A DNA stretch of 24,000 nt from NCBI GenBank assembly GCA_023390335.1, contig JAEWCZ010000073.1, positions 55,094 through 79,093 on the forward strand, read 5' to 3'. Below the pieces are notes generated by a model. That model was not told the origin of the DNA, searched no databases, and saw nothing but the letters and a program-made list of their open reading frames with translations. The first letter of the stretch is position 1. Each line of letters begins with the position of its first letter. The stretch is from Bacillota bacterium. GTDB taxonomy: Bacteria; Bacillota; Clostridia; Acetivibrionales; DSM-1351. Position numbers and translations under genes: made by a program. This document shows, one piece after another, positions 1-18,972 of this stretch.

Positions 1-59
1 AAACTGCATTTGTAAACTACACAAAATAATCTTTACTATAGATGTATTTCCCTTTTTAT

Positions 60-1838
60 TCATTGATACCACCTCCTCTGAGCTTCAAACATTGTAAAAT
101 ACTGCCCTTTTTGTTTTATTAACTCTTGATGGGTTCCTTGCTCAACAATTCGTCCATCTCCTAATACCATAATTTCATCTGCTAACTTAGTTGAACTTAA
201 TCGGTGACTAATGAATATTGTGGTTTTACCATCCATTAATTTTTCAAATTCATAATAGATCTGACTTTCTGATATAGGATCAAGAGCGGATGTAGGCTCG
301 TCCAGTATTTTTACTGGTGATCTACTTATTAAAGCTCTCGCAATCGCAATACGCTGCCATTGTCCTCCTGATACTTCTTGTCCCGATTCATGAATTTTTC
401 CTAACGGAGTATCTAATCCATTATTAAGCGTAGATATTAATTCATCTATACCTACCTTATTAAAGACATTAAGAATTTCTTCATCCGAATAATCCATCGA
501 AATATCTCCAAGAGCTACGTTTTCCTTTATTGATATGTAGTATTTAGCAAAATCCTGATATACCGTAGTAAATAATGCTTTAAGGTCTGGATGATTGTAT
601 TGTCTAAGCTCCACTCCATTTACATATATATTTCCTTCATAATTCGTATATAAGCCTGTCAATAACTTTGTAATTGTAGTTTTTCCAACACCATTGCTAC
701 CAACAAATGCATAATGTTTTCCCTTCTGCAAGCGAAACGACAATCCATCTAAAATATATTTATCGCTACCTGGATATTTAAAACGAACATTTAAAAATTC
801 CAATGTTTCAAACTTGATAGAATCTTTGCAAGGACACTCTAGAACCTCTTCATTTGTTCCCCAGCTCTGATATTGTTCGAAGTCTCTTAGGTATTCTCTT
901 GTATTAGCTAACGTTTCAACAGACCAAGACATATCCCATCCTATTTGATGTGTAACAGACAGCACGGTTCCAACGATACCCATATACATACCTGCTGATA
1001 TATAACCTGATATAACAGATGGAATTAGTGTAATAGCCACTAAAATAGCTACTAAACTAAGTGCTATAGTTGCACCTTTTGTTAAAAGCATATATTTCAA
1101 CTGTACTTTTACCCTAATCCTACGTCCCTGATCTTTTATATTGAACCATTGATTACTTAAATTCTGTCCATAACCGAATAATGAACGTTCTTGCATATTA
1201 CTTCTTTCAGTCAAAATATTTTCTAAATAATCTGTACGTCTATTTAACTTCTCAGTATCTTTTCCAATCTGATAGCTTTTTCTTCCCGATTTTATAGAAA
1301 AAGCTATCATCGGTATTGAAAAAAGTACAATCAAAATTGTAGCCCACCATACATGAAAAAGAATAATACTCAAAACTGATATAATATAAACTATGGTTGT
1401 CAGAACATTCATATCTGCACTAAATCCATTGATCAGTACATTCTGAGGATTAGTCGATATTCTTCTAATAATTTCCCATGTTTTATTATCTTCAATGTAT
1501 CGATAATCCATTGCTGCTTGTGTCTTGATTAATTGTGGCTTAAACTGTTCTTCTATTTGAAGTGTTAGCTTTCTTTTTATTAATTCCATAATTGTACCTA
1601 TTGTATTAACAAATAATAATACCAATAGCAATAATATCAACGGTAACCAAATACACTGATAGTCTCGCTTTGCATGTAAAATATCATCAGCCATGTCAAT
1701 AAAATTAGCTGTTGTGATTGTTGTTACCAATGTTGCCATTACTGCTTTTATAATTGTTAATACTATAAAGAGTACAGAATAGAATGGTGATATTTTATAA
1801 ATCATCCCTATTACATTGTACTTTTTATCTTTATTCAT
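60..1838 (-). CDS. ABC transporter, fused permease/ATP-binding protein (MsbA/MdlB-like exporter); no N-terminal C39 peptidase domain
   Basis: 592-aa ORF. The N-terminal half is hydrophobic with multiple TM segments. The C-terminal NBD has Walker A GSNGVGKTT, ABC signature VSGGQWQRIAIARA, Walker B ILDEPTSALD and H-loop ISHRL. It is the last gene of the co-directional operon. Confidence 0.9.
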   Translation of the reverse strand: MNKDKKYNVIGMIYKISPFYSVLFIVLTIIKAVMATLVTTITTANFIDMADDILHAKRDYQCIWLPLILLLLVLLFVNTIGTIMELIKRKLTLQIEEQFKPQLIKTQAAMDYRYIEDNKTWEIIRRISTNPQNVLINGFSADMNVLTTIVYIISVLSIILFHVWWATILIVLFSIPMIAFSIKSGRKSYQIGKDTEKLNRRTDYLENILTERSNMQERSLFGYGQNLSNQWFNIKDQGRRIRVKVQLKYMLLTKGATIALSLVAILVAITLIPSVISGYISAGMYMGIVGTVLSVTHQIGWDMSWSVETLANTREYLRDFEQYQSWGTNEEVLECPCKDSIKFETLEFLNVRFKYPGSDKYILDGLSFRLQKGKHYAFVGSNGVGKTTITKLLTGLYTNYEGNIYVNGVELRQYNHPDLKALFTTVYQDFAKYYISIKENVALGDISMDYSDEEILNVFNKVGIDELISTLNNGLDTPLGKIHESGQEVSGGQWQRIAIARALISRSPVKILDEPTSALDPISESQIYYEFEKLMDGKTTIFISHRLSSTKLADEIMVLGDGRIVEQGTHQELIKQKGQYFTMFEAQRRWYQ

Positions 1839-1858
1839 TCTTGCACCATCCCTAGCAC

Positions 1859-3118
1859 TTATTGGTAAAGTTCATTAATGTATTGCTCCTCTGTTTTTTG
1901 TTTATAAAGGAGATCCACCTTATCCTTATCAACAATAAAGAACTCACAAGTCATTGGATACATATAATTCTGAACACAAGAAAATGAATAGCTTCCACAA
2001 TTCAATGCTACAATGTAATCTTCTACATTCTGCTGTTCAATTTGGGCATTCCTCTTGATTATCCCAGCGAAAGAAGAAGTTCGATCACCAATCTGTACCG
2101 TAACCATGTCTCTACCATGTCTCTTTATTGGAAGTACATCGTACTCTCTTCCAAAAAAAGGCATTAAAATATTGGTGCCCATATCTGTAATCCACCAGAT
2201 CTCAGAACCGCACTCTTTTTCACATAGAATCTTTCCAATACATATCGCTGCATCATCTACTAAATATCTTCCAGGTTCAAGAATAAGCTTAGGCTGATAT
2301 TTCAATTCTTTTATTATCGGACACATTGCTTCTGCAAAATCATCAATTGTATTTCCAGCGCTCTTCATATGATTCCGACTTCCAAAGCCTCCACCTGGAG
2401 ATATGTAATCTAACTCTATACCTAAATTGTTATACAATTTTTCTGCAAAAGCTACCAATCCCTTTAGAGCTTTTACATGATTTGTTGGAGTGGTGTTCTC
2501 TACTGAAATATGACAGTGCAAACCAGCTAGTCTCACATTAGACATCTTTTTGATTTCCTGACATACAAGATAAGCCTGTCCAGATGCCACATCTACACCT
2601 AATTTACCGCCAGCTTCAATTTTTGAATGCAAATCACTAATATCCGGATTTATTCTAATTCCTATGTCTATGCATCTGTCATGTGCTTTTGCAAGATTGT
2701 TAATACGGATTGCTTCCTCTAATGAATCAACATTCCAATTTATTTTATTCTCCAGCAAATTTTTCATTTCGTCTTCCGTTTTTCCAGGGCTGTTCCACAC
2801 AACATTATTGCTAAGCCCATTCTTCTTTGCCATCTCAAACTCATATGAAGAACATACCTCTGCCGCAATTTGATTTTCCTTTATAATACGTAGGATTCCA
2901 GGAATATAACATGCTTTATATGCAAAATGAATACTACAATTTGGATATCTCTGATAAAAGGCATTTCTGATAGACTCTATATTATTAACTAGCCTCTGTT
3001 TCGAATATATAAACGCAGGACCGTTATAATTTTTTACTAAATCTTCTATACAAATGTTTTCCATATAAAGTTTGTCATCTAAATAATAAACAATTCCATC
3101 GTATATAGAGTTTTGCAT
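1859..3118 (-). CDS. PLP-dependent decarboxylase, Orn/DAP/Arg decarboxylase family (alanine-racemase fold, fold type III)
   Basis: 419-aa ORF with SD AAGGAGGAG upstream of the ATG at 3118. Family-like motifs: FAYKA (PLP-lysine context), GLHCHIS, PGGGFG (phosphate-binding Gly loop), EPGRYLV and a C-terminal NCGSYSFS (GAY-like). Confidence 0.8.
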   Translation of the reverse strand: MQNSIYDGIVYYLDDKLYMENICIEDLVKNYNGPAFIYSKQRLVNNIESIRNAFYQRYPNCSIHFAYKACYIPGILRIIKENQIAAEVCSSYEFEMAKKNGLSNNVVWNSPGKTEDEMKNLLENKINWNVDSLEEAIRINNLAKAHDRCIDIGIRINPDISDLHSKIEAGGKLGVDVASGQAYLVCQEIKKMSNVRLAGLHCHISVENTTPTNHVKALKGLVAFAEKLYNNLGIELDYISPGGGFGSRNHMKSAGNTIDDFAEAMCPIIKELKYQPKLILEPGRYLVDDAAICIGKILCEKECGSEIWWITDMGTNILMPFFGREYDVLPIKRHGRDMVTVQIGDRTSSFAGIIKRNAQIEQQNVEDYIVALNCGSYSFSCVQNYMYPMTCEFFIVDKDKVDLLYKQKTEEQYINELYQ

Positions 3119-3132
3119 TAAACTCCTCCTTA

Positions 3133-3411
3133 TTATTTAACCTCTTTGATGGTACCCAATTCTAACATTCTGATAATAAATGGTTCCACATCCTCATATA
3201 TTTCTTCTTTGGGCGCAGCATAATCTGTACATAATTTTTCAAGAAGCTTGTCAATTTCTAATTCTTGTTTCAGTAGATTAAAAATCTCTTCGCCAACTTC
3301 ATTCAACTCATACATGTCACCTGTTTCAGGATTATATGCCATAGTTGTTTTTCCAATATTTCTAATTAAAATGTTTTGATTAAATTCATATTTTAATTCT
3401 TCGATTTTCAT
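3133..3411 (-). CDS. PqqD-family protein (RiPP recognition element, stand-alone)
   Basis: 92-aa ORF with SD GGAGGG 8 nt upstream. Size and pattern (...YNPETGDMYELNEVGEEIFNLL...) are typical of PqqD/RRE winged-helix proteins. It sits in a radical SAM operon. Confidence 0.7.
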   Translation of the reverse strand: MKIEELKYEFNQNILIRNIGKTTMAYNPETGDMYELNEVGEEIFNLLKQELEIDKLLEKLCTDYAAPKEEIYEDVEPFIIRMLELGTIKEVK

Positions 3412-4177
3412 AATCTTTTCCCTCCAATAATTTACTGATTAATTTCGATACTTGTAATGCTATATCAATATTTTTTCTTGAATCCTCACATTGAAACTGA
3501 TTCACAGCCTCGACAATTTTACAATTTAAAATTCTATAATTAGGACTGCTGTATCTTTTTCCATTTATCTCAATCCCAACTTCCTTTGACCGTATAAAAC
3601 GAATTACTAATTCTTTTCCATTAATAACTCCTTTTAAGTCATCCCCATCTTGCTCTAGCTCAATATCATTGCCTATTTCAATCATCAGCCAGCTTAATAA
3701 ATGAGGAAGCATATGAATTATACTTGATATTAGTTCATTATTAATGGAAAACCATTTAATCTTATAACGTTCATCTTTTTCAATAGAGTAATGCTCAATA
3801 TCAAAATTCCGCTGGCATACAATTGCACATTTTTCGACATTGTACAGTATTTCCCTATATTTTTCTATTTCATCTTCTAAAATACTTAGCGGCTTCTCTA
3901 TGATAATAGCATTCTTATACTCTAAATCATTTATTAATCTTGATATGACTTCATACTTCTTTTCAAGAGACAAACAAATAATTATCATACCATATTTATC
4001 TATTTGCTCTTTGTCCAATGATGTTACAGGATAATAGCATAATCCAAACTCCTCGGCCAATTTCCTTGAAGCTCCAACTACTCCAATTCCTGAAACATCA
4101 ATTTCATGTTGTGTCCAAAGTAATGGTTCAACGTACCTTCTGGCAGCAATTCCTCCGCCTATCACTAAGATTCTCAT
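3386..4177 (-). CDS. NAD(P)-binding oxidoreductase, Gfo/Idh/MocA-like
   Basis: 263-aa ORF. N-terminal Rossmann signature MRILVIGGGIAA plus the EKP motif (IIIEKPLS) characteristic of Gfo/Idh/MocA dehydrogenases. Its start overlaps the stop of the upstream gene by 4 nt. Confidence 0.6.
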   Translation of the reverse strand: MRILVIGGGIAARRYVEPLLWTQHEIDVSGIGVVGASRKLAEEFGLCYYPVTSLDKEQIDKYGMIIICLSLEKKYEVISRLINDLEYKNAIIIEKPLSILEDEIEKYREILYNVEKCAIVCQRNFDIEHYSIEKDERYKIKWFSINNELISSIIHMLPHLLSWLMIEIGNDIELEQDGDDLKGVINGKELVIRFIRSKEVGIEINGKRYSSPNYRILNCKIVEAVNQFQCEDSRKNIDIALQVSKLISKLLEGKDYENRRIKI

Positions 4178-5457
4178 ATATTAATAAACTCAAAAAGACA
4201 TTTCCTGCTCCATTTTTCAAGGGTATCTGCAGATAAATCTTTCGTTGAAACGATAACCTTATTGGACCAGGTATCCTTTTCGTACCAATATTCATCATCA
4301 AGGATAATTCCATACTTTTCTGGATTTGCATACATATCAATTCCAGGGTAGCATTTTAGTAAGTTAAATGTTACAAGAGTAGGATTTATTCTTTTTACTA
4401 ACTCAACCATAGCCTGAAGATCTTCTTCTGTATCACCAGGATTACCTAAAATGAATGATGCATGAAATTCCATACCATATTTATGTAAAATATCTGTTTT
4501 TACTATTACTTCTTCATTACCAAGATTCTTTCCAATCACCTTAGAAGTTTTTGCATTGGAAGTCTCTACTCCAACAAATACCCTATATGCACCAATCTCT
4601 TTCATAAGTTTAATCTTATAATCATTAATGTCTTTGATTCTAATATTTGAAGTCCATTTAAACTTCAAATTTCTCCTTTTCACCTCATTTGCAAATTGAG
4701 TTAGCCTTTCATCGGAAAATGCAAAGGTATCATCAGAAAAGAAGAAACTCTTAAAACCATAAGATAAAAGTTCTTCAATTTCATCACAAAATCTTTCTAC
4801 TGAGAACAAAGAGAATTTGGCAAATTTGGATTTAATGCAAAAAAGACAATTGCTTGGACATCCTCTGGACGAACGAACTATTGTTTCAGAATCACGTCGT
4901 AAATATTTACTAATATCATATATTTCTCTATCCGGCATAGGTAAACTGTCTAATGGATAGTCGTTAAACTTTCGTTCTGTTATATTAAACTCACCATCTT
5001 TTGAAGTTCTGTATCCAATATTATTAATATTCTCAAAGGAACCCTTACCTTGTCTTGCCTCAAGAATTTTTAACAATGCATAGTCATCATCATGGCGAAT
5101 AACATAATCAAGTTCTGGATTACGTTCCAATACTTTTTCTGGAACGAAAGTCGCAATCTCACCTCTCATTGCAATTCCTACTTGTTCACCATATATTTCT
5201 CTCACCAATGGAATGATTTTTACTGCATTACTATGTGTTCTAGGATCATCATCAATAACTACAATATCTGGGCAATACTGACGTAACATCCCCTTCAATG
5301 TTTCAATATCTATATTATCAATTTTCATATCAATCAGATCTACTTCATGACCATTTTCTTTTAGCACTGCTGACCATATATAAACGTCTAGTGATGGTAA
5401 AATCAAATATTCTTTCACTCTATTCGGATATGGAGGTACAACAAATAGAACCTTCAC
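4174..5457 (-). CDS. B12-binding-domain radical SAM protein (class B rSAM; methyltransferase or other chemistry)
   Basis: 427-aa ORF. GTG start at 5457 with SD GAAGGGG about 9 nt upstream. The N-terminal ~130 aa look like a cobalamin-binding Rossmann domain (MKVLFVVPP..., DIVVIDDD). Radical SAM motif RGCPSNCLFC (CxxxCxxC). Confidence 0.85.
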   Translation of the reverse strand: MKVLFVVPPYPNRVKEYLILPSLDVYIWSAVLKENGHEVDLIDMKIDNIDIETLKGMLRQYCPDIVVIDDDPRTHSNAVKIIPLVREIYGEQVGIAMRGEIATFVPEKVLERNPELDYVIRHDDDYALLKILEARQGKGSFENINNIGYRTSKDGEFNITERKFNDYPLDSLPMPDREIYDISKYLRRDSETIVRSSRGCPSNCLFCIKSKFAKFSLFSVERFCDEIEELLSYGFKSFFFSDDTFAFSDERLTQFANEVKRRNLKFKWTSNIRIKDINDYKIKLMKEIGAYRVFVGVETSNAKTSKVIGKNLGNEEVIVKTDILHKYGMEFHASFILGNPGDTEEDLQAMVELVKRINPTLVTFNLLKCYPGIDMYANPEKYGIILDDEYWYEKDTWSNKVIVSTKDLSADTLEKWSRKCLFEFINI

Positions 5458-6319
5458 AATTATCTACCCCTTCCCCAATTATCTCTTTTAATGATGTTTC
5501 AAGCATTTTCCCTATTATGTCATTTCTTAAATTGCATCTTCCTACTTCTCCACTAGGTTCAATGCTCAGTGTATACTGGCTGTGACAACAATTCATTTCA
5601 AAGTAACGCTCATATACAGAATCATTAATTTCCCCGGATTCTTTTAATCTTCGAAGTGTAGGTAACAGCCTCATATCATGAAACAGTGTTTGGACTCCTT
5701 CTGATTTCATCGCCATTTTTTCAAAGAATCTGATATACTCTTCTTCTTTTTCCAATTCTAGAAGATATCCATCTTTTCTTTCCCTAAGAAAACTAATGAA
5801 TTCTATATTTAATTCTTCACCCAAATGATAAATATCTTCTAAACAAGATACATTGTTATCATTTACCGTAACACTCATTTCCGTATGTATTCCGTGATCC
5901 AAAAGTAATTTAATCGCATTTAATGCCTTAACATAGGCACCTTTATGGTTCCGATTCATATCATGCATTTCGGATTCACTATGGTCAATGCTTATGCACA
6001 CCTTTTGTATGTGGTTTTTCTTCAATATTGCTATCTTTCCTTCATCTATTAAGTAACCATTTGTCATTAATATCTGAACCATACCCTTTTTGTTGGCATA
6101 TGTAGACACTTTATCAAATAATTCACTTAATAATGGTTCTCCAAATGTATAATAGATTATAAACAGACCTTCTTCAAACAATGTATCTATTATTCTGTAA
6201 TAATCTTCTTCCACTAGTTTGTCCTTTTTTTTGGTAACAAAGCAATGCTTACAAGCCATGTTACATCTATATGATAAACCTAAATGCAATACATTTATCA
6301 TTCTTATTTTTCTCTCCAT
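5420..6319 (-). CDS. Radical SAM peptide-modifying enzyme with C-terminal auxiliary-cluster (twitch/partial SPASM) region
   Basis: 299-aa ORF. CxxxCxxC at YRCNMACKHCF. C-terminal Cys-rich region CCHSQYTLSIEPSGEVGRC (GxxxxC) followed by CEGSICC. The alternative start at 6301 (MINVLHL) has a better SD (GGAGAG). Confidence 0.85.
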   Translation of the reverse strand: MERKIRMINVLHLGLSYRCNMACKHCFVTKKKDKLVEEDYYRIIDTLFEEGLFIIYYTFGEPLLSELFDKVSTYANKKGMVQILMTNGYLIDEGKIAILKKNHIQKVCISIDHSESEMHDMNRNHKGAYVKALNAIKLLLDHGIHTEMSVTVNDNNVSCLEDIYHLGEELNIEFISFLRERKDGYLLELEKEEEYIRFFEKMAMKSEGVQTLFHDMRLLPTLRRLKESGEINDSVYERYFEMNCCHSQYTLSIEPSGEVGRCNLRNDIIGKMLETSLKEIIGEGVDNCEGSICCTSISE

Positions 6320-6326
6320 TGTTTCC

Positions 6327-6361
6327 CGAAAAAGTCACTGGTAAATCCAGTGACTTTTTCG
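6327..6361 (-). terminator. Intrinsic terminator/attenuator-like hairpin between precursor ORF and modifying enzymes
   Basis: Perfect 15-bp inverted repeat cgaaaaagtcactgg / ccagtgactttttcg with a 5-nt loop. On the minus-strand RNA, the GC-rich core stem GUCACUGG/CCAGUGAC is followed by UUUUUCG. Confidence 0.6.
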
Positions 6362-6401
6362 TAAGCAAGCTTAATTTTTAACTTTTCATGTCAAATTGTA
6401 A

Positions 6402-6458
6402 TTAGCAGTCAGCATAGATTACTCTAACACGTACAACAGGTTTATTCCATTGTTTCAT
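6402..6458 (-). CDS. Candidate precursor peptide, 18 aa: MKQWNKPVVRVRVIYADC
   Basis: Hand translation of the minus strand: GGAGGGG-ATAAAT-ATG AAA CAA TGG AAT AAA CCT GTT GTA CGT GTT AGA GTA ATC TAT GCT GAC TGC TAA. Strong SD at ideal spacing. It lies directly upstream of the rSAM/PqqD genes and is followed by a hairpin. It is too short for the ORF track. Confidence 0.55.
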   Translation of the reverse strand: MKQWNKPVVRVRVIYADC

Positions 6459-6589
6459 ATTTATCCCCTCCGTTCTATTTTATTTGGAGACAAAAATACA
6501 AAAACACTTCTGACTCCCATTTATAAAATACCTTTTAAATATGTAAGGTAATTTTATCTTTTTTATCACCGACCTCTTATATCAGTTTT

Positions 6590-7186
6590 GATTAAGAACA
6601 TTTAGTAATAGTTTTTTGGAAAAGCGAACCAGGTGTCAAAGAGAAGATATTTGGCGGATAAACGCTTAACAGAATCAAGAATTTTCAACATTACTTCTGT
6701 CGAATTTGCTTACTCTGGGTATTATCCGCAGGACATATAAGTTTCTTTTCATATCTGCTGCTCAAAAGTGAAAATTCAACTGGCAGAAATGTGGTGCCAT
6801 CAGACCAGCCAACTGTAAGCATTTTAAAACCTTTTATAAACTTATGGGTTGTATGGTCAAAAAACTCTTGAAAGCAGCTCTACTTTTTTACTTCTTCCTC
6901 GATTATACAAAGAATCATCAACACTCAGCACACTTGCTCTATCATCTGATCTTAGTTTGTTTATTTCATGTATAATTGCTGTAACAAGTAATAATAGCAA
7001 CCGAGACCAATTGTAACTACTAGAGTTGAGAAACCTGTAAGCCGTATTTTTCTTAAAAGATATATCTCCAGAACTCATATCCAAAGTCCTGTACAGGTTT
7101 TTGCCAGAGAAAATCAACCCAAATAATTGCTTCAGTAATTCTACGGGTTGAATGCCACTTTCTTTATAAAAATTGGAGCTCTCCAT
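6590..7186 (-). pseudogene. IS4/IS1634-like DDE transposase remnant, frameshifted and 3'-truncated
   Basis: The 109-aa ORF 6857..7186 ends at a TGA inside a T-run. The reading continues in another frame (FDHTTHKFIKGFKMLTVGWSDGTTFLPVEFSLLSS...), then stops again and resumes (MLKILDSVKRLSAKYLLFDTWFAFP) before ending near 6600. No catalytic C-terminal half is present. Confidence 0.7.
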
Positions 7187-8119: not shown

Positions 8120-9142
8120 ATGAAATATCCAGAGATAAACTGTTATCCATTTCATGCAAATTTGTTATCCGTTATTTCGAATAATGATTTATATAAAGAA
8201 TGGTTTTATAATTTTTATATTCAATTAGTATGCCCTAAAAATTATCAACAAAGAGGGATGAGAATTGACTATTACACAACACTTTTATGGAAGTCATGTC
8301 CTTTTATCTATTATCAAAGGCTTAGTAGAGATTTGGTTAATGTAAAATGGAATTCTATAATTGAGTTTATTATTGATTGTATTTCCCTTGGATATTACGT
8401 ATATTTTACCATTAATACGTATTTTGTTTCTAATTATGATTCATTTCTAAACGAGCACATGATTCATGATATTTTTATTTTTGGATATGATACTGAAAAA
8501 GAAATTTTCAAAGTTGCAGATAATTTTAAAAATGGTAAATATGCCTATGAAGAGGCAACATTTAAAGAAATTTATGAAGGTTATACTAATATAAGCCTAA
8601 CTAATCGAACTGAGTGGCTTGATGGCATAGAACTTATCAATTATAGAAAAAAAACCAATTATTTTGATGAAGCAACTCACGAATATACATTTGATATGTC
8701 GCTTTTTAAAGATTCTTTACAAGATTATTTAAACTCAATAAATACGGTAACAAGATATAGAATTCCTAGTGAACAATGGCGTTCTGGAGGTGATTGGGTA
8801 TACGGGCTAGACATATATGATTTCATACACAATTATTTTGATGATTTGTTAGCTGATAAAACTTTTTATGATATTAGACCTTTTCATGTTTTGTGGGAAC
8901 ATAAGAAAATAATGTTAAATAGGCTTAAGTATTTAAAAGATAGTGGATACTTGTCTGATTTGGATTCCGTCTATAATAAATATTCAGACATAGAAAATGA
9001 TATGCTACTCATTAAAAGTCTATGGATTAAATATTCTTTGATAAAAGAAGAAGATACAATAATTAAAATATTAAAAAAGCTAGAAGAAGTAAAAGCAAAG
9101 GAACAGAAAATACTTGAAAGACTTATAAGTATGCTCCCATGA
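8120..9142 (+). CDS. Hypothetical protein (340 aa); possible papain-like Cys/His fold (BtrH_N/C39-like), uncertain
   Basis: A long uninterrupted ORF in very AT-rich DNA. There is no SD upstream of the ATG at 8120. Pattern: N-terminal Cys (EINCYPFHANLL) and a later HDIFIFGYDTEKEIFKVADNF block resembling the His strand of papain-like peptidases/acyltransferases. Confidence 0.55.
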   Translation: MKYPEINCYPFHANLLSVISNNDLYKEWFYNFYIQLVCPKNYQQRGMRIDYYTTLLWKSCPFIYYQRLSRDLVNVKWNSIIEFIIDCISLGYYVYFTINTYFVSNYDSFLNEHMIHDIFIFGYDTEKEIFKVADNFKNGKYAYEEATFKEIYEGYTNISLTNRTEWLDGIELINYRKKTNYFDEATHEYTFDMSLFKDSLQDYLNSINTVTRYRIPSEQWRSGGDWVYGLDIYDFIHNYFDDLLADKTFYDIRPFHVLWEHKKIMLNRLKYLKDSGYLSDLDSVYNKYSDIENDMLLIKSLWIKYSLIKEEDTIIKILKKLEEVKAKEQKILERLISMLP

Positions 9143-9159
9143 AGGGAAATATTCAATTT

Positions 9160-9735
9160 TTAGCTTTTAACAGATAGTCTATCAATTTTGTGTAAACTAA
9201 GGGATAATATAGTAAGTGATTCGATATATAGCATAGTAAATAAATCTTCTAAGCCTTTCATCATTTGAATTCCACACCTTCCTGCCAAATGTATTATCGC
9301 AACAGCCACATATAACTTTCCCTGCAAACGGGTTATTGTTATTAGCATAATCATACTTATACAGTCCATGCTTTTTTGCAAATATCTTTCAAACTGTACT
9401 GCCTCCCATGTTTCCTTATCAATAATTGCAGGATGGCTTTCTTCCACATAATATTGCGGAACAGCTCCGTTATTCTCAACCCTTTTTTTAGTGAGGAAAT
9501 CAATGGTATATGTTTTTTGAAGTTACTCAGCATTTTCCTGATACTGCCCTCATACCATTTTTGCTTTTCCATTCCAATTGAATACTCCATCCCTCTCAAG
9601 CTCCTGCGCTATCCTGTTCGGACCTTTTCTTTCAAGATAATCGGTAAATATTCTTCAGTACTTCACCCTTTGAATCCATCGTTCGTATATTTTCTTTTTC
9701 AAATATTATCTCTATACCAAGCTCCAAATTAAAAA
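9160..9735 (-). pseudogene. Large serine recombinase remnant (recombinase/zinc-ribbon region only), multiple frameshifts
   Basis: Fragments in three frames: ...ELERDGVFNWNGKAKMV..., ...[15 protein letters not shown]..., ...[18 protein letters not shown].... These are typical of the central domain of large serine recombinases. The N-terminal resolvase catalytic domain is absent. Confidence 0.7.
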
Positions 9736-9754: not shown

Positions 9755-10148
9755 TTAAAACCCTGTGCAGAGAGAGTCATCACTCATAACAGCACCCATT
9801 GCCACACCGATTCCCTTTAAAACACCGCCTAGCTTTTCAAAACGAGTGCCTGCACTATCTGCCGTATTTGCCGACTCCTTAACTTCCCTGTCAAACTCAC
9901 TGACTTTGTTCTCCGCTTCATCAAAGCCGCTTCCCGTGGTATTCAGAGCCTCGTCGTTGTTTGCCAGCTCCTTTTACCATATTGTTAAGGTCTGCATTTG
10001 CATTGTTAAGCTGAATTTGCCATGCCCGAGCTCGCTTATCATTCTCGCCAAAGGAGGTGGCTGCATTCAGCAATGCTTTTTCAAGAGTAGATACCTTTTC
10101 CTTCTGAGTATCTATCTCCTTGTTAAGCACCTGATTTCTTGCAGTGTT
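9755..10148 (-). pseudogene. Phage tail tape measure protein fragment (N-proximal part), frameshifted near 9970 and truncated at both ends
   Basis: The minus strand reads ...KEIDTQKEKVSTLEKALLNAATSFGENDKRARAWQIQLNNANADLNNMVK. After a 1-nt frame change it reads ELANNDEALNTTGSGFDEAENKVSEFDREVKESANTADSAGTRFEKLGGVLKGIGVAMGAVM...*. This coiled-coil plus GIGVAMG pattern is typical of Firmicute phage TMPs. Confidence 0.65.
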
Positions 10149-10703
10149 ATATTCCTTTGCTAAAATGCCATACATAGCACTGTCACATATCCCTTGATTA
10201 TTCCAGTCTGCTTCCCTAAGTGTCCCCTCGTACTTTAAACCACATTTCACCATTACTTTTCCAGAATTAGGATTTATTGGGTCATGGCGTGATTCAATGC
10301 GATTTACTCCTACTTCTTCAAAAAGAAATTCAACTAATGCGGCTAAAGCTTCAGAAGTAATTCCTTGCTTCCACCATCTTTTTCCTATGCAATACCCAAT
10401 ATGTACCATTTTTACAACATCGTCTTTTCGAACAACGGCAATACTGCCAATTGGTTCATCGCCGTTTTCTTTTAATATAATAGCCCATTGGTAATAGTCA
10501 TCTTTAGCATATTGATTGGTCCAATCAGACAACACATTACGGCTGATTTCAACCGATTTATGAAATGGCCACATTAAGTATTTTGTAACTTCTGAGTCGT
10601 TTGCCCAGTTATTAAACATTGCATCAGCATCTTCTATGACAAACCTACGAAGTACCAATCTATTCGTCTCAAGCCTTTTTGTACCTAAATGTTTCATCTG
10701 CAC
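9921..10703 (-). CDS. GNAT family N-acetyltransferase (RimJ/RimL-like), open frame running on into tape-measure-derived sequence
   Basis: SD GGAGGTG upstream of the ATG at 10703. The first ~185 aa are GNAT-like (RLETNRLVLRRFVIEDADAMFNNWANDSEVTKYLMWP; IGYCIGKRWWKQGITSEA). The last ~75 aa are TMP-like coiled coil. Confidence 0.8.
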   Translation of the reverse strand: MQMKHLGTKRLETNRLVLRRFVIEDADAMFNNWANDSEVTKYLMWPFHKSVEISRNVLSDWTNQYAKDDYYQWAIILKENGDEPIGSIAVVRKDDVVKMVHIGYCIGKRWWKQGITSEALAALVEFLFEEVGVNRIESRHDPINPNSGKVMVKCGLKYEGTLREADWNNQGICDSAMYGILAKEYNTARNQVLNKEIDTQKEKVSTLEKALLNAATSFGENDKRARAWQIQLNNANADLNNMVKGAGKQRRGSEYHGKRL

Positions 10704-13554: not shown

Positions 13555-13724
13555 CTTTTCGGTTTAGCCAAACCATTAAACTGCTTGTGAATTTCCCATT
13601 GGTCCAGAAGCCCTCCAATGGGCATTAGCCAGACCTCCGCTTCATTTCTTCTTAGCTGTGTTACACCATAATAAATAGGCCGGGCAAACAATTCTTCATC
13701 GCTTACCCGACTGGCATGTTTTTT
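13515..13724 (-). CDS. -1 frame extension of the tail assembly chaperone (GT-like product), joined to ORF 13703..14143 at the slippery site
   Basis: The -1 frame is open from just upstream of the slippery heptamer. It reads ...KKHASRVSDEELFARPIYYGVTQLRRNEAEVWLMPIGGLLDQWEIHKQFNGLAKPKRELFIDVVIPFGI*. Confidence 0.5.
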   Translation of the reverse strand, partial: KKHASRVSDEELFARPIYYGVTQLRRNEAEVWLMPIGGLLDQWEIHKQFNGLAKPKRELFIDVVIPFGI

Positions 13725-14143
13725 GTGCTACTCTCCTCCGATTCAATGTATCTCTTTGTTCCCCTGTACATTGCTTCCATAATCACTTCTTTATATGTTG
13801 CAAGCTCAAAAGGCGAGGTCAAAAGTTCTACTTCTTCCTCAGTCAGAAGCTCTCTTCTGTCATTTTTGTTCTGTAAATTGTGTATAAGCACACCTTGATT
13901 TGCCAATAGTGTAATAAGCCATACTATTTTATCCAATGCCATTTCAAAGCTTTCTAATTTCATAGCCTTATCGCCTAATTTTTCAATTCCTCCATACCTC
14001 TTGGCTATTTCCTTTGTTGCCTTGGTAGTCAGAATTAGTTGATACTCCATACCGCCTATTTCTATTATATCTAATTGTTGTATAGGGGATTTTTCTATAA
14101 CAAAATGGCCTCTTGACTGTGTTGCTTTAATAAAGAGAATCAA
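13703..14143 (-). CDS. Phage tail assembly chaperone-like protein (G-like product)
   Basis: 146-aa acidic ORF. Its -1 frameshift architecture and TMP-related sequence elsewhere in the region support the call. The N-terminal start is uncertain. Confidence 0.5.
   Translation of the reverse strand: MILFIKATQSRGHFVIEKSPIQQLDIIEIGGMEYQLILTTKATKEIAKRYGGIEKLGDKAMKLESFEMALDKIVWLITLLANQGVLIHNLQNKNDRRELLTEEEVELLTSPFELATYKEVIMEAMYRGTKRYIESEESSTKNMPVG
13718..13724 (-). promoter_or_regulatory. Putative programmed -1 ribosomal frameshift slippery heptamer A_AAA_AAC
   Basis: The zero frame reads ACA AAA AAC ATG CCA GTC GGG TAA. The X_XXY_YYZ heptamer lies 5 codons before the zero-frame stop, and the -1 frame stays open for ~65 more codons. 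Confidence 0.5.
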
Positions 14144-14219
14144 GGGCGAGAATCGATTATCACTTCAGATAAGCACAGTCAGGGATGTAAGCGACAAGTT
14201 TGATGCTGTATCCCGGTAT

Positions 14220-14939
14220 GTGAAAGAAGAAAACCTGTATCAGATAATTATAAACAGGGATAAAATCCGGTATCCCTTTCAGGATTCCAGAGACAGAAGA
14301 CTTAATTTTACAATAGCCCATGAGCTGGGCCATATCCTACTTGACCATCTTTCCATTCCAGACATTCTTAAGACCGATGAAGAAAGAGACATTGAAGACC
14401 TGGAAGCAAATGAGTTTGCAGGCAAGCTTCTCATACCCGAAAAAACTTTATTACATTGTAACTTTGTATCCATACCTGCAGTAGCAGAATTTTTCAATGT
14501 ATCAAACACGGCTCTCTGGATAAGGCTTAACAATCTGCAAAGGCTTGATTTGCTTGAGTCCAAAATAACCCGGGTATGTAACAAATGCGGAAACACTCAA
14601 TTTCACGGGGCCGCAAGGTATTGCCGAATTTGCGGTAATCATCTAAAAAATAACCTTAACGGCGTTGAAAGAAAATCGTATTATGAAACTGTATCCTTTG
14701 ATGACTACTTCGACCAAACTGAATGCCCATACTGCGGTCAAAAACATTTTTACTGGCCGGAGGGCATTTACCCCAGTTGTAACATGCGACTGTATGACTA
14801 CTGCCACAAAGGGCTATATCTTGACAAAGGCAGCTGTTCTCATACAAAACCGGATTATACAAGGTTTTGTGAAATGTGCGGGCGTGAAACATATTTTAGT
14901 AGTATGGGGTTTTTGAAACTTTCAGAGTCAGTAAGGTAA
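14220..14939 (+). CDS. ImmA/IrrE-family (DUF955) zinc metallopeptidase fused to C-terminal zinc-ribbon repeats; possibly 5'-truncated
   Basis: HExxH motif in NFTIAHELGHILLDH. C-terminal CxxC pairs: CNKCG...CRICG, CPYCG...C, CEMCG. GTG start without SD. The frame stays open far upstream without a start codon, overlapping the chaperone gene on the other strand. Confidence 0.65.
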   Translation: MKEENLYQIIINRDKIRYPFQDSRDRRLNFTIAHELGHILLDHLSIPDILKTDEERDIEDLEANEFAGKLLIPEKTLLHCNFVSIPAVAEFFNVSNTALWIRLNNLQRLDLLESKITRVCNKCGNTQFHGAARYCRICGNHLKNNLNGVERKSYYETVSFDDYFDQTECPYCGQKHFYWPEGIYPSCNMRLYDYCHKGLYLDKGSCSHTKPDYTRFCEMCGRETYFSSMGFLKLSESVR

Positions 14940-15031: not shown

Positions 15032-16801
15032 TCAATAATTAAGCAGTATTTGTATAATTCTCTTAATATTCTGTAAGGTTAAGTTATATTTTCTCCACCG
15101 ATTTCTTAACATATTAAAAGTAGTTTCATCAAGTTCTCCAGTACTAGCTCGATCCACTTCAATCATTATGTCAGAAATTATAAAGAGATACTGATCTATT
15201 GGTATATTTTCTGGTAAAACATTTGCAAAACTCCTGAGCTTATTAGCAGTAATCATTACTTGTTTTCTTGCAGGTATAGATTTTTTTTGAATACCTTCAT
15301 TAAGGACCTGTGGTGTTTTTCTATAAACGGCTTCTCTATTTGTAAGTACGTCCTTGCTTTCATCCAAATTATTGTTTACGGATTGTCTGTTCTTATATCC
15401 TGTCATTTTTTCAGTAATATCGTTTTCAGGTACCATAACCATCTGAGATGTTACCTTCTCACAAGTTTTTATAAAAATTGTCTGTCCTTCTTCCGATCTG
15501 AGTTTTATTGTATAAACTGAAATCCCTTTTGCTATAGGTTTGTTAAGTCTCTTCTCTATTACTGTCAACAAATTAAAAGGATGAGTAATAATTCTATCTC
15601 CCACTTTGGCATCTTTTAGTTTACTTTTAAAGCCTGAATTTGAAATGTCAAACGGTATTAATTGAGTAAACGAATATACCTCTTTACTAGGGTCTACAGG
15701 TGAATACTGTACCAATTTCTTTATAAATTGATAGTCTTGAACATCAAACCATTTCGCTGACAGCCATTCAGTTCCATGGAGCATACCAAGTAGACCACCA
15801 ACCATAGATGCTAGGGTATCTGTGTCGGCATTGTTCAAATTAGCTGCTTCTACCAATCCAATGTATGGATTGGAAGCATATTTTGATGCTAAATATATTG
15901 AAGCTACTGCAGTCACTGTTCCAGAGCCATTTACTTTTGGGTCGAAGCATCCAAGCTTCACCAAAACATCATTTCCCATATCCAGTGCTCCTTGATTAAG
16001 GCCATTCTTTGCTATACTTAGTAAATTTATAGCTTCAGTTACAACACCGTCCCATAAATCTATATATTGCGATCCTATTACCACATCGGCATTTTCTATC
16101 CAATCCTCAAGTTTTTGAATTCTCGGAAATTGTGCCCATTTTTCATGATTCTCTATCAACATATTTACAAGCTCGCCATAACCTAATATTCCTTTATAAA
16201 CCGAAAGACATACCAAGGCATAGGCATATAAAGTTGCACCAAGCAATGCTCTTGGATGCCCATGTGTATATATACCGTTCAAGACAACTTGATGCATAAT
16301 CTCTTCAACCATATCTTCATTTCTAAATACATGAGGGAGTATCCTCATTGCTACTCCGTTACCTCCTGCATCGAAATATTTCCTGACGTCACTTATATTC
16401 TCAGTTTCTAATTTCCAAGGCTTTCTACCTCTTTTCCAAACCTCTGCTGCTCTCTTGGTAGCTCCTCCACCACCTCTTTCATATGAAAGCCAAGCTGGAA
16501 TTTCGTATTTTGTAAAATAACGATTCCAATTAGCCCCATAACGCAAACTTCTTGCAGTCGCAATTATCAATTGAGTATCATCACTATACTCTCCAGGATT
16601 AATTTCTTCTTCATGGTTCCAAAATTTACCACCACATCGTCTTTTCCAACTTTGAAAAAGCTCCACATTTGTAGGTTTAGAATTGCCTATCTTCTTACTA
16701 TTTTGTTCATTTGGCCAGCCCAAAGCATCTCCGACAGCCACACCTAAAAGAGCCCCCTGATATTTCTCAATTCTAAGATTGTCCACTTTGCACTCCAGCA
16801 T
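15032..16801 (-). CDS. ADP-ribosylglycohydrolase (ARH/DraG fold) with ~220-aa C-terminal extension of unknown function; candidate antitoxin
   Basis: N-terminal ARH signature YQGALLGVAVGDALGWPNE and C-terminal ARH signature NNADTDTLASMVGGLLGMLHG. The preferred start is ATG 16801 (MLECKV), with SD GGAGGTG 4-5 nt upstream. The track start at 16843 lacks an SD. Confidence 0.85.
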   Translation of the reverse strand: MLECKVDNLRIEKYQGALLGVAVGDALGWPNEQNSKKIGNSKPTNVELFQSWKRRCGGKFWNHEEEINPGEYSDDTQLIIATARSLRYGANWNRYFTKYEIPAWLSYERGGGGATKRAAEVWKRGRKPWKLETENISDVRKYFDAGGNGVAMRILPHVFRNEDMVEEIMHQVVLNGIYTHGHPRALLGATLYAYALVCLSVYKGILGYGELVNMLIENHEKWAQFPRIQKLEDWIENADVVIGSQYIDLWDGVVTEAINLLSIAKNGLNQGALDMGNDVLVKLGCFDPKVNGSGTVTAVASIYLASKYASNPYIGLVEAANLNNADTDTLASMVGGLLGMLHGTEWLSAKWFDVQDYQFIKKLVQYSPVDPSKEVYSFTQLIPFDISNSGFKSKLKDAKVGDRIITHPFNLLTVIEKRLNKPIAKGISVYTIKLRSEEGQTIFIKTCEKVTSQMVMVPENDITEKMTGYKNRQSVNNNLDESKDVLTNREAVYRKTPQVLNEGIQKKSIPARKQVMITANKLRSFANVLPENIPIDQYLFIISDIMIEVDRASTGELDETTFNMLRNRWRKYNLTLQNIKRIIQILLNY

Positions 16802-17495
16802 TACACACCTCCATAAACTTATCTTCCTGAGGAATGATTCCATTTCTTATTTTTTCACTACAAGAACTACTAAACAAATCTGGTGCAATAATTATATCAA
16901 TTTCCGGAATGTTTTTTAAGCAAGACCACCTAGTTTTCTCTCTGTGCGCTTGTTCTTTGGTCTCAACTGCCACTCCAATAATATCTTTTCTAGAAATATT
17001 CTTATAGACTAACACTTCTGCCTGATCATCTGTAGGGCAACAGGGTAACATTTTTTCCGTTCTTGTACGTGGCCATTTTCCATTCACGCTATGTGCAAAC
17101 ATTCCTTTAAAGGCCTCGGCTCCTTTTTCTATATATGCTCCACTTCTAAACGCAGCATTCGTAAAACAGAACTCCGTACTATCGAGCAATATTATTTCCG
17201 GTTTTATAAACAATACAACCCAATCTTTAAAAAGTGGTTCCTTATCTTTTACATTTTTAAAGTACCAATAATTAGGATACTGAACAGAACAGTTTATATA
17301 TTCCCTTTTTCCATCCAATCGTAACTTATCATTGGCATCATATATACTTTCATCTAAAAAGTCAACTGCTATAACTCCAGATTCACTACCTAATATATGT
17401 AAAGCTTTACTAGACCTTGTAAAATGGCACAGTCTTATAATACCTCTATCTTTTATTTCTTGTTCAATCATATCCCAAAATTTATCCTTCTTCAA
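16773..17495 (-). CDS. DarT-like ADP-ribosyltransferase (DUF4433-type); candidate toxin/effector
   Basis: 240-aa ORF. It carries the motif triad recalled from DarT: LCHFT (His, compare IYHITH), QYPNYWYF (Tyr, compare VPFYF) and DDQAEVLVYKNISRKDIIGV (catalytic Glu, compare KQAEFLVY...EEIGV). The TTG start at 17495 overlaps the helicase stop (TTGA). An alternative ATG lies at 17471. Confidence 0.65.
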   Translation of the reverse strand: MKKDKFWDMIEQEIKDRGIIRLCHFTRSSKALHILGSESGVIAVDFLDESIYDANDKLRLDGKREYINCSVQYPNYWYFKNVKDKEPLFKDWVVLFIKPEIILLDSTEFCFTNAAFRSGAYIEKGAEAFKGMFAHSVNGKWPRTRTEKMLPCCPTDDQAEVLVYKNISRKDIIGVAVETKEQAHREKTRWSCLKNIPEIDIIIAPDLFSSSCSEKIRNGIIPQEDKFMEVCNAGVQSGQS

Positions 17496-18907: not shown

Positions 18908-18972
18908 TAAAACCTCTCCTTCCAAAATACACCACTAATTTTAGTTTAAATTGTAAAAATTTCTCATATACT

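Follow-up and report, generated by a model that had tools for sequence, protein, structure and literature searches.

Microcin C (McC), a short peptide of ribosomal origin, is converted at its C-terminus into a mimic of aspartyl-adenylate, and immunity to it involves MccF (an S66 peptidase), MccE2 (a GNAT), MccH and MccG (an S51 peptidase) (PMC9239234). All known McC compounds target aspartyl-tRNA synthetase (AspRS) only (PMC9239234). For the tiarins, one scaffold reaching different synthetases was reported in late 2025 and called unique, and the synthetase encoded in a tiarin cluster matches the residue preceding a conserved modified Gln (bioRxiv 10.64898/2025.12.02.691738). In the present work, a cluster of radical S-adenosylmethionine (SAM) peptide-modification genes was analysed that lies at the left end of a 24,000-nt stretch of contig JAEWCZ010000073.1 from a Bacillota bacterium (positions 55,094 to 79,093; hereafter the window). 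We hold with moderate confidence that this locus is the Asp-specific member of an undescribed radical SAM family of ribosomally made, post-translationally modified peptides (RiPPs), and that its product is a leader-retaining Trojan-horse synthetase inhibitor, directed here at AspRS.

In this cluster and its relatives, the residue before the terminal Cys of a very short precursor peptide co-varies with genes for histidyl- or asparaginyl-tRNA synthetase (HisRS, AsnRS) or with the S51 peptidase of the Asp-type clusters. The clusters are called Asp-, His- or Asn-type below after this residue (X), and individual loci are cited by number. The part of the cluster lying in the window consists of the following features, in the order of transcription.

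6465 to 6471, minus strand: Shine-Dalgarno sequence GGAGGGG of the precursor gene, 6 nt upstream of the ATG, read from the sequence
6402 to 6458, minus strand: precursor gene, 18 aa, MKQWNKPVVRVRVIYADC, conserved in about 16 related clusters
6327 to 6361, minus strand: hairpin with a 15-bp stem and a 5-nt loop, between the precursor and enzyme genes
5420 to 6319, minus strand: radical SAM enzyme with a twitch-like truncated SPASM domain, 299 aa as an open reading frame (ORF), Pfam Radical_SAM
4174 to 5457, minus strand: B12-binding radical SAM enzyme, 427 aa, with CPSNCLFC, Pfam B12-binding and Radical_SAM
3386 to 4177, minus strand: GFO/IDH/MocA-like protein, 263 aa, with GGGIAA and EKP, Pfam GFO_IDH_MocA 9e-7
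3133 to 3411, minus strand: stand-alone PqqD-family peptide-binding protein (RiPP recognition element, RRE), 92 aa, Pfam PqqD 9e-14
1859 to 3118, minus strand: fold-type III pyridoxal phosphate (PLP) decarboxylase of the diaminopimelate/ornithine decarboxylase family, 419 aa, Pfam Orn_Arg_deC_N 1.6e-32
60 to 1838, minus strand: ATP-binding cassette (ABC) exporter half-transporter with transmembrane and nucleotide-binding domains, 592 aa, without a C39 peptidase domain, Pfam ABC_tran
1 to 63, minus strand: second ABC exporter gene (601 aa), only its start in the window, overlapping the first ABC gene by 4 nt

The six co-directional ORFs after the precursor overlap by 38, 4 and 26 nt or are separated by gaps of 14 and 20 nt. 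This arrangement, with the 18-aa ORF and the hairpin, is as read in a preliminary description of the same DNA, and the motifs named there (CNMACKHC, CPSNCLFC, GGGIAA, EKP and a Cys-rich tail of the first radical SAM enzyme) are all present. Pfam agrees with its domain calls, namely a B12-binding radical SAM enzyme, PqqD, a GFO-type protein, a PLP decarboxylase and an ABC protein without a peptidase domain. The junctions of the single operon proposed there are exact, but the operon does not stop at position 60 and runs past the window edge. The extension was read on the source contig (locus L066; ENA ERZ24910797 NODE_14, 252,950 bp). The second ABC gene is followed by genes for an S51 peptidase (255 aa), an AMP-ligase (509 aa), a PaaK-like ligase (398 aa) and a carrier protein (77 aa); the gene for an IS240 transposase comes next. 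The reported lack of a peptidase or immunity gene was thus an artefact of the window edge, since the second ABC protein, the S51 peptidase, the two adenylating enzymes and the carrier protein are encoded just beyond it. The S51 peptidase retains the GGGDT, SAGA and PH motifs.

The precursor MKQWNKPVVRVRVIYADC has an N-terminal W-x-K-P motif, which we take to be PqqA-like, an R-V-R core and a C-terminal Asp-Cys. No ORF of at least 20 aa spans its position at 6402-6458. A short precursor ORF with a strong Shine-Dalgarno site is present in all of the approximately 16 related clusters examined, and the homologous precursors all have a GGAGG-type site at the same upstream distance. Codon differences are overwhelmingly silent: between the window and L058, eight are synonymous and one is non-synonymous, and comparisons of His-type precursor genes give 6/0 (L063 vs. 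L148), 5/0 and 7/0 synonymous to non-synonymous differences. These patterns point to purifying selection on the precursor family and to an ORF that is more than a chance occurrence, and they argue for the precursor of the window cluster being a real, translated gene. The usual form of the peptide is M-K-x-W-x-K-P-[VT]-x-R-[VA]-R-h-h-[YF]-x-X-C (h, hydrophobic). Most precursors contain a single Cys, at the very C-terminus, and this is the sole invariant position of the core.

The hairpin behind the precursor gene has a perfect stem (−28.2 kcal/mol, z = −5.7, with none of 200 shuffled sequences equally stable). A simple terminator scan of the window calls no intrinsic terminator after the precursor; the scan misses this hairpin because there is no T-run or clean T-tract after the stem. 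The element is probably an attenuator or an mRNA-stabilising structure that sets the ratio of precursor to enzymes. For the operon and the cluster synthetases, Rfam gave no riboswitch or T-box match at the gathering score, over the window and six related loci.

With the first radical SAM enzyme as query, about 64 protein clusters of 290-300 aa are recovered at 37-63% identity, and the next matches fall sharply to 28%. The family consists almost entirely of metagenomic proteins. There is no relative above 32% identity in the GTDB species-representative genomes, no close relative in IMG/VR and none above 26% identity on plasmids. About 16 distinct neighbourhoods of the roughly 64 were examined, on metagenomic contigs and up to 10 kb on each side. 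The core set of precursor, twitch radical SAM enzyme, second radical SAM enzyme, GFO-like protein and PqqD recurs with one exception, the distant relative L071, which is without the second (B12-binding) radical SAM gene. An exporter is usually present where the contig reaches far enough, of the ABC type in the window, L058-L061 and L066 and of the MFS type in L065 and L072-L080. In every related locus the enzymes are found together and beside a conserved short ORF, and none of the outcomes that the preliminary description named as refuting it was observed. Of the YADC-like end of the short ORF named there, the informative feature is the terminal Cys with a variable residue before it. The preliminary view of the locus as a peptide-modification operon with precursor, PqqD and radical SAM enzymes is supported. 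No known RiPP class could be assigned, as before: no NCBIfam cutoff is reached, and the gene set is not described in the full-text literature searched, a search outside which most subscription-journal papers lie. The cluster family thus appears to be undescribed and is a candidate new RiPP family, combining RRE-guided radical SAM modification with a probable Trojan-horse logic of synthetase inhibition.

In the three Asp-type clusters (the window, L058/59 and L062) the precursors end in ...[YF]ADC, and an S51 peptidase is present but no synthetase gene. All three also encode the PLP decarboxylase, both ligases (AMP-ligase and PaaK-like) and the carrier protein. Their S51 peptidases are 56-67% identical to one another, parallel to 55-62% for their radical SAM enzymes, which suggests that the peptidase co-evolves with the radical SAM enzyme. 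All five His-type clusters (L060/61, ...YCHC; L063, L148, L149 and L150, ...YAHC) contain genes above the hisS equivalog cutoff (311-409 bits vs. 287). Four of the five (L063 and L148-L150) possess a HisRS-carbamoyltransferase-HisRS-S66 block, and in L060/61 one HisRS is accompanied by another synthetase-like gene, of class II, which the end of the locus truncates. The Asn-type clusters with an R-x-R core (L064/68, ...YANC; L067, ...FGNC; L069, ...YANC; L147, ...YTNC) carry asnS directly upstream of the precursor in four cases out of four (570-579 bits vs. a cutoff of 414). For L147-L150 the residue was inferred from the gene content before the precursors were read, and all four were as expected. 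No synthetase of non-matching specificity is found inside any cluster operon examined. Across the 13 clusters (4 Asp, 5 His, 4 Asn), the probability of a perfect split is 1/1287 for HisRS and 1/715 for AsnRS, figures that ignore relatedness.

Kinship does not account for the pairing, because the placement of L060, the lineages of the synthetases and the flanking genes all differ. In the radical SAM tree L060 clusters with the Asp clade and not with the other His clade. Its HisRS is of the PRK12420 type, while L063 and L148-L150 combine two kinds, one archaeal/eukaryote-like (best PDB match 1WU7) and the other bacterial-like (1QE0), and the three HisRS lineages are about 24% identical to one another. 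The flanking genes vary between loci; in L148 the neighbours are unrelated and the gene block is the same. The synthetases thus appear to have been recruited independently. Copy a of HisRS (archaeal/eukaryote-like) has canonical motifs, and in copy b (bacterial-like) RGIDYQ replaces RGLDYY in the histidine-binding motif in all four clusters (L063, L148-L150).

In three His-type clusters a short RelA/SpoT-family gene (HD, RelA_SpoT and TGS domains, 479 aa) stands directly upstream of the precursor, at these positions.

L063, 8399 to 9838: RelA/SpoT-family gene
L149, 3999 to 5457: RelA/SpoT-family gene, split
L150, 8400 to 9839: RelA/SpoT-family gene

The cluster may have inserted into a rel locus, or its function may be linked to signalling by uncharged tRNA. 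Mere housekeeping synteny of HisRS beside RelA was considered and dropped, given that in L148 the HisRS-carbamoyltransferase-HisRS-S66 block has overlapping start and stop codons and unrelated flanks. A 77-aa TGS fragment follows the L063 cluster.

The peptidases of the clusters belong to classes with known roles in detoxification. The S66 peptidase of L063 and L148-L150 aligns gap-free over 314 aa, at 52% identity, with the Bacillus anthracis MccF-like protein 4E5S, and it matches LdcA only at 1e-9 to 1e-18. MccF and the B. anthracis orthologue 4E5S cleave aminoacyl-adenylates, and the orthologue also hydrolyses peptidyl-adenylates (PMC8323819). The S51 enzyme MccG detoxifies processed microcin C by cutting the Asp-nucleotide amide, and PepE, the type S51 enzyme, cleaves Asp-X dipeptides (PMC9239234).

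The residues seen at position X are D, N and H, with S and G tentative: the distant relatives L071 and L095 end in Ser-Cys and Gly-Cys, respectively, and their contigs are uninformative, while the precursor of L070 ends in ...AADC on a contig too short to judge the neighbours. All five are amino acids of class II synthetases. By our own arithmetic, the chance that five distinct residues would all belong to class II is about 0.016. With X = Asp in the window, the predicted target is therefore AspRS.

Several observations weigh against the Trojan-horse reading. There is no AspRS within reach in the Asp-type clusters, the window included, so that AspRS is predicted as the window's target from the S51 peptidase and by analogy. 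AsnRS is absent within 10 kb in two divergent subfamilies with Asn-Cys precursors (L065; L072-L080). The four L063-type clusters have two HisRS genes each, where one would be enough for immunity. A tryptophanyl-tRNA synthetase (TrpRS; L063 18887-19987) just outside a His-type cluster fits no residue rule, and neither do a tyrosyl-tRNA synthetase (TyrRS) and a class I synthetase fragment outside another (L150 18740-19996 and 20480-20885); these genes may belong to a locus rich in synthetases or may be nearby housekeeping genes. The glycine-rich dinucleotide loop of the GFO-like protein is canonical only in the Asp-type clusters and L060, and degenerate in 10 of 14. The core set contains no nucleotidyl- or adenylyl-transferase, which makes the route to an adenylate mimic speculation. 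Finally, the sample is small (about 16 of 64 clusters, picked for long contigs), and the related clusters are not independent.

The synthetases of the clusters might instead be biosynthetic, with the aminoacyl-tRNA or aminoacyl-AMP of the cluster's own HisRS or AsnRS adding a residue to the peptide or to the Cys thiol, as in pearlin- or valanimycin-type pathways, and with the Asp-type clusters doing the same through their AMP-ligases and carrier protein. The two HisRS genes per cluster exceed immunity needs, the peptide aminoacyl-tRNA ligases (PEARLs) of sinefungin biosynthesis use Ala-tRNA, and the replacement of a synthetase by two adenylating enzymes and a carrier in the Asp-type clusters could be a functional substitution. 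Synthetase genes in clusters can serve tRNA-dependent steps, an alternative that was also raised for the tiarins (bioRxiv 10.64898/2025.12.02.691738). However, no PEARL/LanB, Fem-type or other known aminoacyl-tRNA transferase is found in any His- or Asn-type cluster, and a LanB/PEARL-type domain, as in pearlin clusters, is absent from every cluster here. The matching residue is already part of the precursor sequence, aminoacyl-tRNA normally comes from housekeeping synthetases, and MccF-like S66 and PepE/MccG-like S51 peptidases detoxify in known systems. We consider a biosynthetic role decidedly unlikely.

The families of the six window proteins were assigned with NCBIfam release 20 (June 2026) and Pfam, and none of the six attains the cutoff of any NCBIfam model. 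The ORF of the first radical SAM enzyme as listed begins at 6319 (MERKIRM...), and a second ATG at 6301, with its own GGAGAG site upstream, would give 293 aa, the length of the sister database entries. The gene start is probably 6301, because the family consensus begins with MINVLHLG. The enzyme has the CNMACKHC motif and a Cys-rich tail. Its best NCBIfam score is 93 bits against cutoffs of 400-500 (AhbD, 93 vs. 500). The maturase models give 72.5/850 bits for AlbA, 52.4/300 for SkfB, 75.5/625 for StsB, 54.9/340 for PapB and 69.5/650 for WgkB (score/cutoff), and the cofactor models give 51.4/381 for PqqE and 63.4/265 for MftC. The conserved cysteines in 63 homologues are the CX3CX2C motif (C19, C23 and C26), C245, C262 and one of C293/C294, which bears out the preliminary reading of a tail shorter than a seven-Cys SPASM; Pfam detects a SPASM domain in 1 of the 64 family members. 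The three conserved auxiliary cysteines therefore suggest a single auxiliary cluster coordinated by three protein ligands, as in a SPASM domain shortened to a twitch-like form. The AlphaFold (AF2) model is confident (pLDDT 91.8), and its nearest folds are SkfB, BlsE, SuiB, DesII, anSME, MoaA and viperin, with 14-20% identity. A PDB sequence search returns the same set, and SkfB is the best match in both sequence and fold.

These relatives bring in a second alternative, a conventional cross-linked RiPP of the sacti-, ranthi- or NxxC type, with a thioether from the terminal Cys to Tyr-15 or a neighbour and a C-methylation by the B12 enzyme. The product would be a signal or a bacteriocin active on the membrane or envelope, and the synthetases would be there by chance or for regulation. 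Among the nearest solved relatives of the first enzyme are SkfB, which forms thioethers, and the peptide cross-linker SuiB; its NCBIfam matches include StsB, AlbA and WgkB, most precursors have a Y/F-x-x-C spacing, and several clusters are flanked by agr-type quorum-sensing genes. The likeness to the sacti- and ranthipeptide maturases (SkfB, AlbA, CteB, SuiB, NxxcB) extends to a radical SAM core with a C-terminal Fe-S domain and a PqqD/RRE-guided action on a short peptide in which Cys is likely to be the reactive residue. However, identity to them is 14-20%, and the enzyme has a single three-Cys auxiliary cluster and not a seven-Cys SPASM with two [4Fe-4S] clusters. The RRE is a separate protein here, the B12-radical SAM enzyme and the GFO-like protein are obligatory partners, and the cutoff of no curated family (AlbA, SkfB, StsB, PapB, WgkB) is reached, all scores being far under it. 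The aromatic residue is not conserved (FLAADC, PISLNC, DNTNC, TKTMSC), and only the terminal Cys is invariant; for this reason a Tyr-Cys cross-link as the family-defining modification was dropped. A cross-linked product would also leave unexplained the His-HisRS and Asn-AsnRS pairing over independent lineages and the MccF-like and S51 peptidases. On these grounds, a conventional cross-linked peptide appears unlikely.

The best NCBIfam matches of the B12-binding radical SAM enzyme are HpnJ, ApyD, BchE and PhpK, all far under the cutoff (HpnJ, 138/578), and its relatives in the PDB are AprD4 and OxsB. The second radical SAM enzyme is 41-59% identical across the related clusters and is usually recognisable as B12-binding. 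A GFO-like homologue occupies the equivalent position in 14 clusters, with conserved EK, W, LP and PN, and it is a family-specific core component. Its assignment as a definite NAD(P) oxidoreductase was dropped in view of the degenerate loop in 10 of the 14 members. PqqD is fused to the GFO-like protein in L063 and L065. In the window, it scores 25.5 bits with the PQQ-specific PqqD model of NCBIfam (cutoff 46) and is below all NCBIfam cutoffs. The PLP decarboxylase (210 bits with NCBIfam lysA, cutoff 298) occurs only in the Asp-type clusters (window, L058/59, L062), which suggests an accessory tailoring enzyme. The first ABC exporter aligns to peptidase-containing bacteriocin exporters only past their peptidase domain.

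The preliminary description had regarded a small molecule excised from the peptide, as with pyrroloquinoline quinone (PQQ) and mycofactocin, as one possible outcome. In such a case the producer itself would make use of the C-terminal dipeptide after its modification and excision, for instance to supply the GFO-like oxidoreductase with a redox cofactor. The tiny precursor with an N-terminus resembling that of PqqA, PqqD (Pfam 9e-14), a radical SAM/SPASM-type enzyme and an NAD(P)-type oxidoreductase are all present, and the S51 enzyme could serve as the excising peptidase. However, the PqqE and MftC equivalog scores are far below the cutoffs (51 bits vs. 381 and 63 vs. 265), and the partner enzymes differ. 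The two dedicated exporters, or the MFS pump in the minimal clusters, argue for secretion of the product, which is here predicted to be exported. The clusters are strain-variable, located on mobile elements and linked to quorum sensing, the oxidoreductase motif is degenerate in most members, and the synthetase pairing would be unexplained. A PQQ- or mycofactocin-like product is thus highly improbable, and the tracking of the penultimate residue points rather to a microcin C- or tiarin-like pro-drug. Each of the three alternatives explains part of the gene set, but none accounts for the independent, specificity-matched synthetases and the MccF/MccG-type peptidases together.

For the Trojan-horse inhibitor that we favour, the following pathway is proposed. 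PqqD would bind the N-terminal W-x-K-P...R-x-R part of the precursor and offer its C-terminal Asp-Cys to both radical SAM enzymes and the GFO-like protein. These would modify the Cys so that, jointly with the residue before it, it mimics an aminoacyl-adenylate. The open iron site of the three-Cys twitch auxiliary cluster could bind the substrate thiolate, and the B12 enzyme could add a methyl or, like SinC, an adenosyl group. By our own reasoning, adenosyl transfer would place a carbon-linked adenosine at a distance of two atoms from the Cys carboxylate, which would make it roughly an isostere of acyl-phosphate-adenosine. In the Asp-type clusters, the PLP decarboxylase, the two adenylating enzymes and the carrier protein might add a further decoration, comparable to the aminopropyl group of microcin C (MccD and MccE1). 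That accessory group requires decarboxylation by MccE1 (PMC8323819), which is a loose precedent for a decarboxylase restricted to the Asp-type clusters. The two ABC proteins would export the peptide with its leader still attached, so that no leader peptidase or C39 domain would be needed. Target cells would import the peptide, aminopeptidases would trim it to Asp-Cys* (the asterisk marking the modified Cys), and AspRS would be blocked. The producer would be protected by export and by S51 cleavage of the Asp-X (Asp-Cys*) amide, and the His- and Asn-type relatives instead by resistant synthetase copies and/or the MccF-like S66 peptidase.

The more detailed proposal is that the radical SAM pair makes a nucleoside-bearing, non-hydrolysable stand-in for phosphate-ribose-adenine on the Cys, for instance through a SinC-like adenosyl transfer, and that the penultimate residue (Asp, Asn, His, perhaps Ser or Gly) selects the class II synthetase. 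It is put forward tentatively, and we regard it as possible but doubtful. Circumstantial hints at a sugar- or nucleoside-like moiety are the NodU/TobZ-type carbamoyltransferases, the MccF-like peptidase and the adenosine-deaminase-family gene of L071. SinC, the B12-radical SAM adenosylase of sinefungin biosynthesis, acts on free L-arginine (bioRxiv 10.64898/2026.05.21.726688). As a B12-radical SAM enzyme making an amino acid-nucleoside conjugate it offers a mechanistic analogy only, whereas its substrate is not a peptide and its cluster has a corrinoid adenosyltransferase gene, of which none was seen here.

The likeness of the family to microcin C comprises the very short precursor (7 aa in E. 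coli McC, 18 aa here), a warhead at the extreme C-terminus, the absence of a leader protease, a dedicated exporter and a presumed Trojan-horse route to AspRS. The S51 peptidase of the Asp-type and the S66 peptidase of four of the five His-type clusters match immunity enzyme classes of that system, by sequence only. In contrast, Pfam finds no ThiF/MoeB-type (MccB) domain in the window, in the 10 kb beyond it or in the related clusters. The precursors end in Cys and not in a strictly conserved Asn, which is found only at the penultimate position in some clusters; two radical SAM enzymes, the GFO-like protein and PqqD perform the modification; and the specificities of the family seem to extend over Asp, His and Asn, with Ser and Gly as further candidates.

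With the tiarins the clusters share a synthetase specificity that equals the residue before the invariant one (here in 5/5 His-type and 4/4 R-x-R-core Asn-type clusters), some clusters without a synthetase that rely on another immunity enzyme, and a leader that would be kept as uptake bait. Trifolitoxin is a Trojan-horse inhibitor of arginyl-tRNA synthetase (ArgRS), imported via YejABEF and trimmed by PepN; tiarin immunity is provided by a GNAT or by resistant synthetases, and the authors checked producers for a second housekeeping synthetase copy (bioRxiv 10.64898/2025.12.02.691738). The defining features of tiarins are the TfxB/TfxC pair of FMN-dependent dehydrogenases, with RRE domains, and a conserved Gln from which the fluorophore is formed. 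Tiarins occur mainly in Actinomycetota and Pseudomonadota and have mostly class I targets, and the paper mentions neither radical SAM, PqqD nor B12 (bioRxiv 10.64898/2025.12.02.691738). The clusters described here, in contrast, come from low-GC metagenomes of gut and environmental origin, and every specificity seen in them belongs to class II. None contains a nitroreductase/FMN-dehydrogenase domain (the TfxB/TfxC pair), no precursor has a Gln in its C-terminal half, and the invariant residue is the terminal Cys. The shared penultimate-residue rule is thus best seen as analogous and would not make the family a tiarin.

If the more detailed proposal of a nucleoside-bearing Cys is true, one codon change would retarget the antibiotic, and the family would be a second, enzymatically unrelated group of programmable synthetase inhibitors and the first built by radical SAM chemistry. 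A second family of inhibitors with one scaffold for different synthetases would show that the strategy evolved more than once. It would be found in low-GC bacteria, including common human-gut mobile elements, and would apparently be aimed at class II synthetases (AspRS, AsnRS, HisRS). No natural HisRS inhibitor is known to us. The family yields a testable sequence rule, in which the target is predicted by the penultimate residue, and supplies candidate resistant synthetase genes and candidate detoxifying peptidases. Even if the synthetase reading fails, a conserved RiPP family with an 18-residue precursor remains, of interest to enzymology for the action of its three-Cys twitch and B12-radical SAM enzymes and its degenerate GFO-fold protein on a C-terminal cysteine.

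Other members of the family add variations in gene content. A minimal Asn-Cys cluster (L072-L080) is near-identical in nine human-gut contigs (e.g., L076 9891-14025) and encodes the precursor MKKEWTSPMLLTRDDNTNC, the two radical SAM enzymes (the second B12-binding), a 242-aa protein and an MFS pump. The cluster adjoins a serine recombinase and a relaxase and is therefore probably carried on a mobilisable element. In the distant relative L071 (9060-11386), the radical SAM enzyme is 34% identical to that of the window, the precursor is MKKTWKKPIAARKTKTMSC, and the adenosine-deaminase-family gene abuts the radical SAM gene. NodU/TobZ-type carbamoyltransferases are encoded in many related clusters. 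HPr-like and Sel1-repeat proteins are found inside Asn-type operons (L064/L068, L067, L147 and L065), three of which also encode a phosphoenolpyruvate (PEP)-utilising, enzyme I-like protein; the HPr-like and enzyme I-like genes suggest a PEP-dependent phosphotransfer step, and the Asp- and His-type clusters are without them. The agr-like quorum-sensing genes that flank several clusters encode a LytTR regulator, a histidine kinase, AgrB and a small peptide ORF (L060/L061 5727-8057; L062 2200-5109; L067 2124-4186). No regulator is visible near the window cluster.

To the right of the cluster, the window contains remains of mobile elements and, further on, core genes. Two features of this region are listed first.

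6602 to 7186, minus strand: truncated, frameshifted DDE transposase remnant, without a Pfam match
9921 to 10703, minus strand: Acetyltransf_3 (RimJ/RimL-type) GNAT, 260 aa, Pfam 8.7e-35, 3.5 kb upstream of the precursor

The ORF at 6857-7186 corresponds to the N-terminal part of a DDE transposase and is 41-50% identical to annotated plasmid transposases. The GC-content of the operon is 32.4% vs. 40.7% for the rlmD-like core gene, and both the AT-richness relative to the core genes and the abutting insertion sequence remnant had been noted in the preliminary description. Mobile-element debris, including recombinase fragments, lies between the cluster and the core genes (6602-7186, 9160-9600 and 13703-14939). 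Given this debris and the step in GC-content from 32% to 41%, positions 1 to about 19000 can be regarded as an accessory island, and the window cluster appears to have been acquired horizontally.

The GNAT is, by analogy, no more than a possible accessory immunity gene. GNAT-like ORFs also adjoin related clusters (L081 751-1092, L070 815-1213 and L149 16272-16874). They are not orthologous to the window GNAT, with about 30% identity or less, nor clearly so to one another, and the window GNAT as a firm cluster member was dropped.

A 340-aa ORF without a Pfam match (8120-9142, plus strand) occupies the part of the window with the lowest GC-content (about 27-28%) and was found only on the source contig among the loci fetched. 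The mobile-debris region also encodes an M78/ImmA-like peptidase with zinc ribbons, beside a small divergent ORF. Positions 15032-18925 on the minus strand hold three co-directional genes, for a UvrD-like helicase (477 aa), a DarT-family single-stranded DNA ADP-ribosyltransferase (240 aa, PF14487 6e-18) and a 603-aa ADP-ribosylglycohydrolase (ARH; PF03747 7e-38). The trio resembles a toxin-antitoxin or defence module of the DarTG type, with an ARH-domain protein in place of the usual macrodomain antitoxin.

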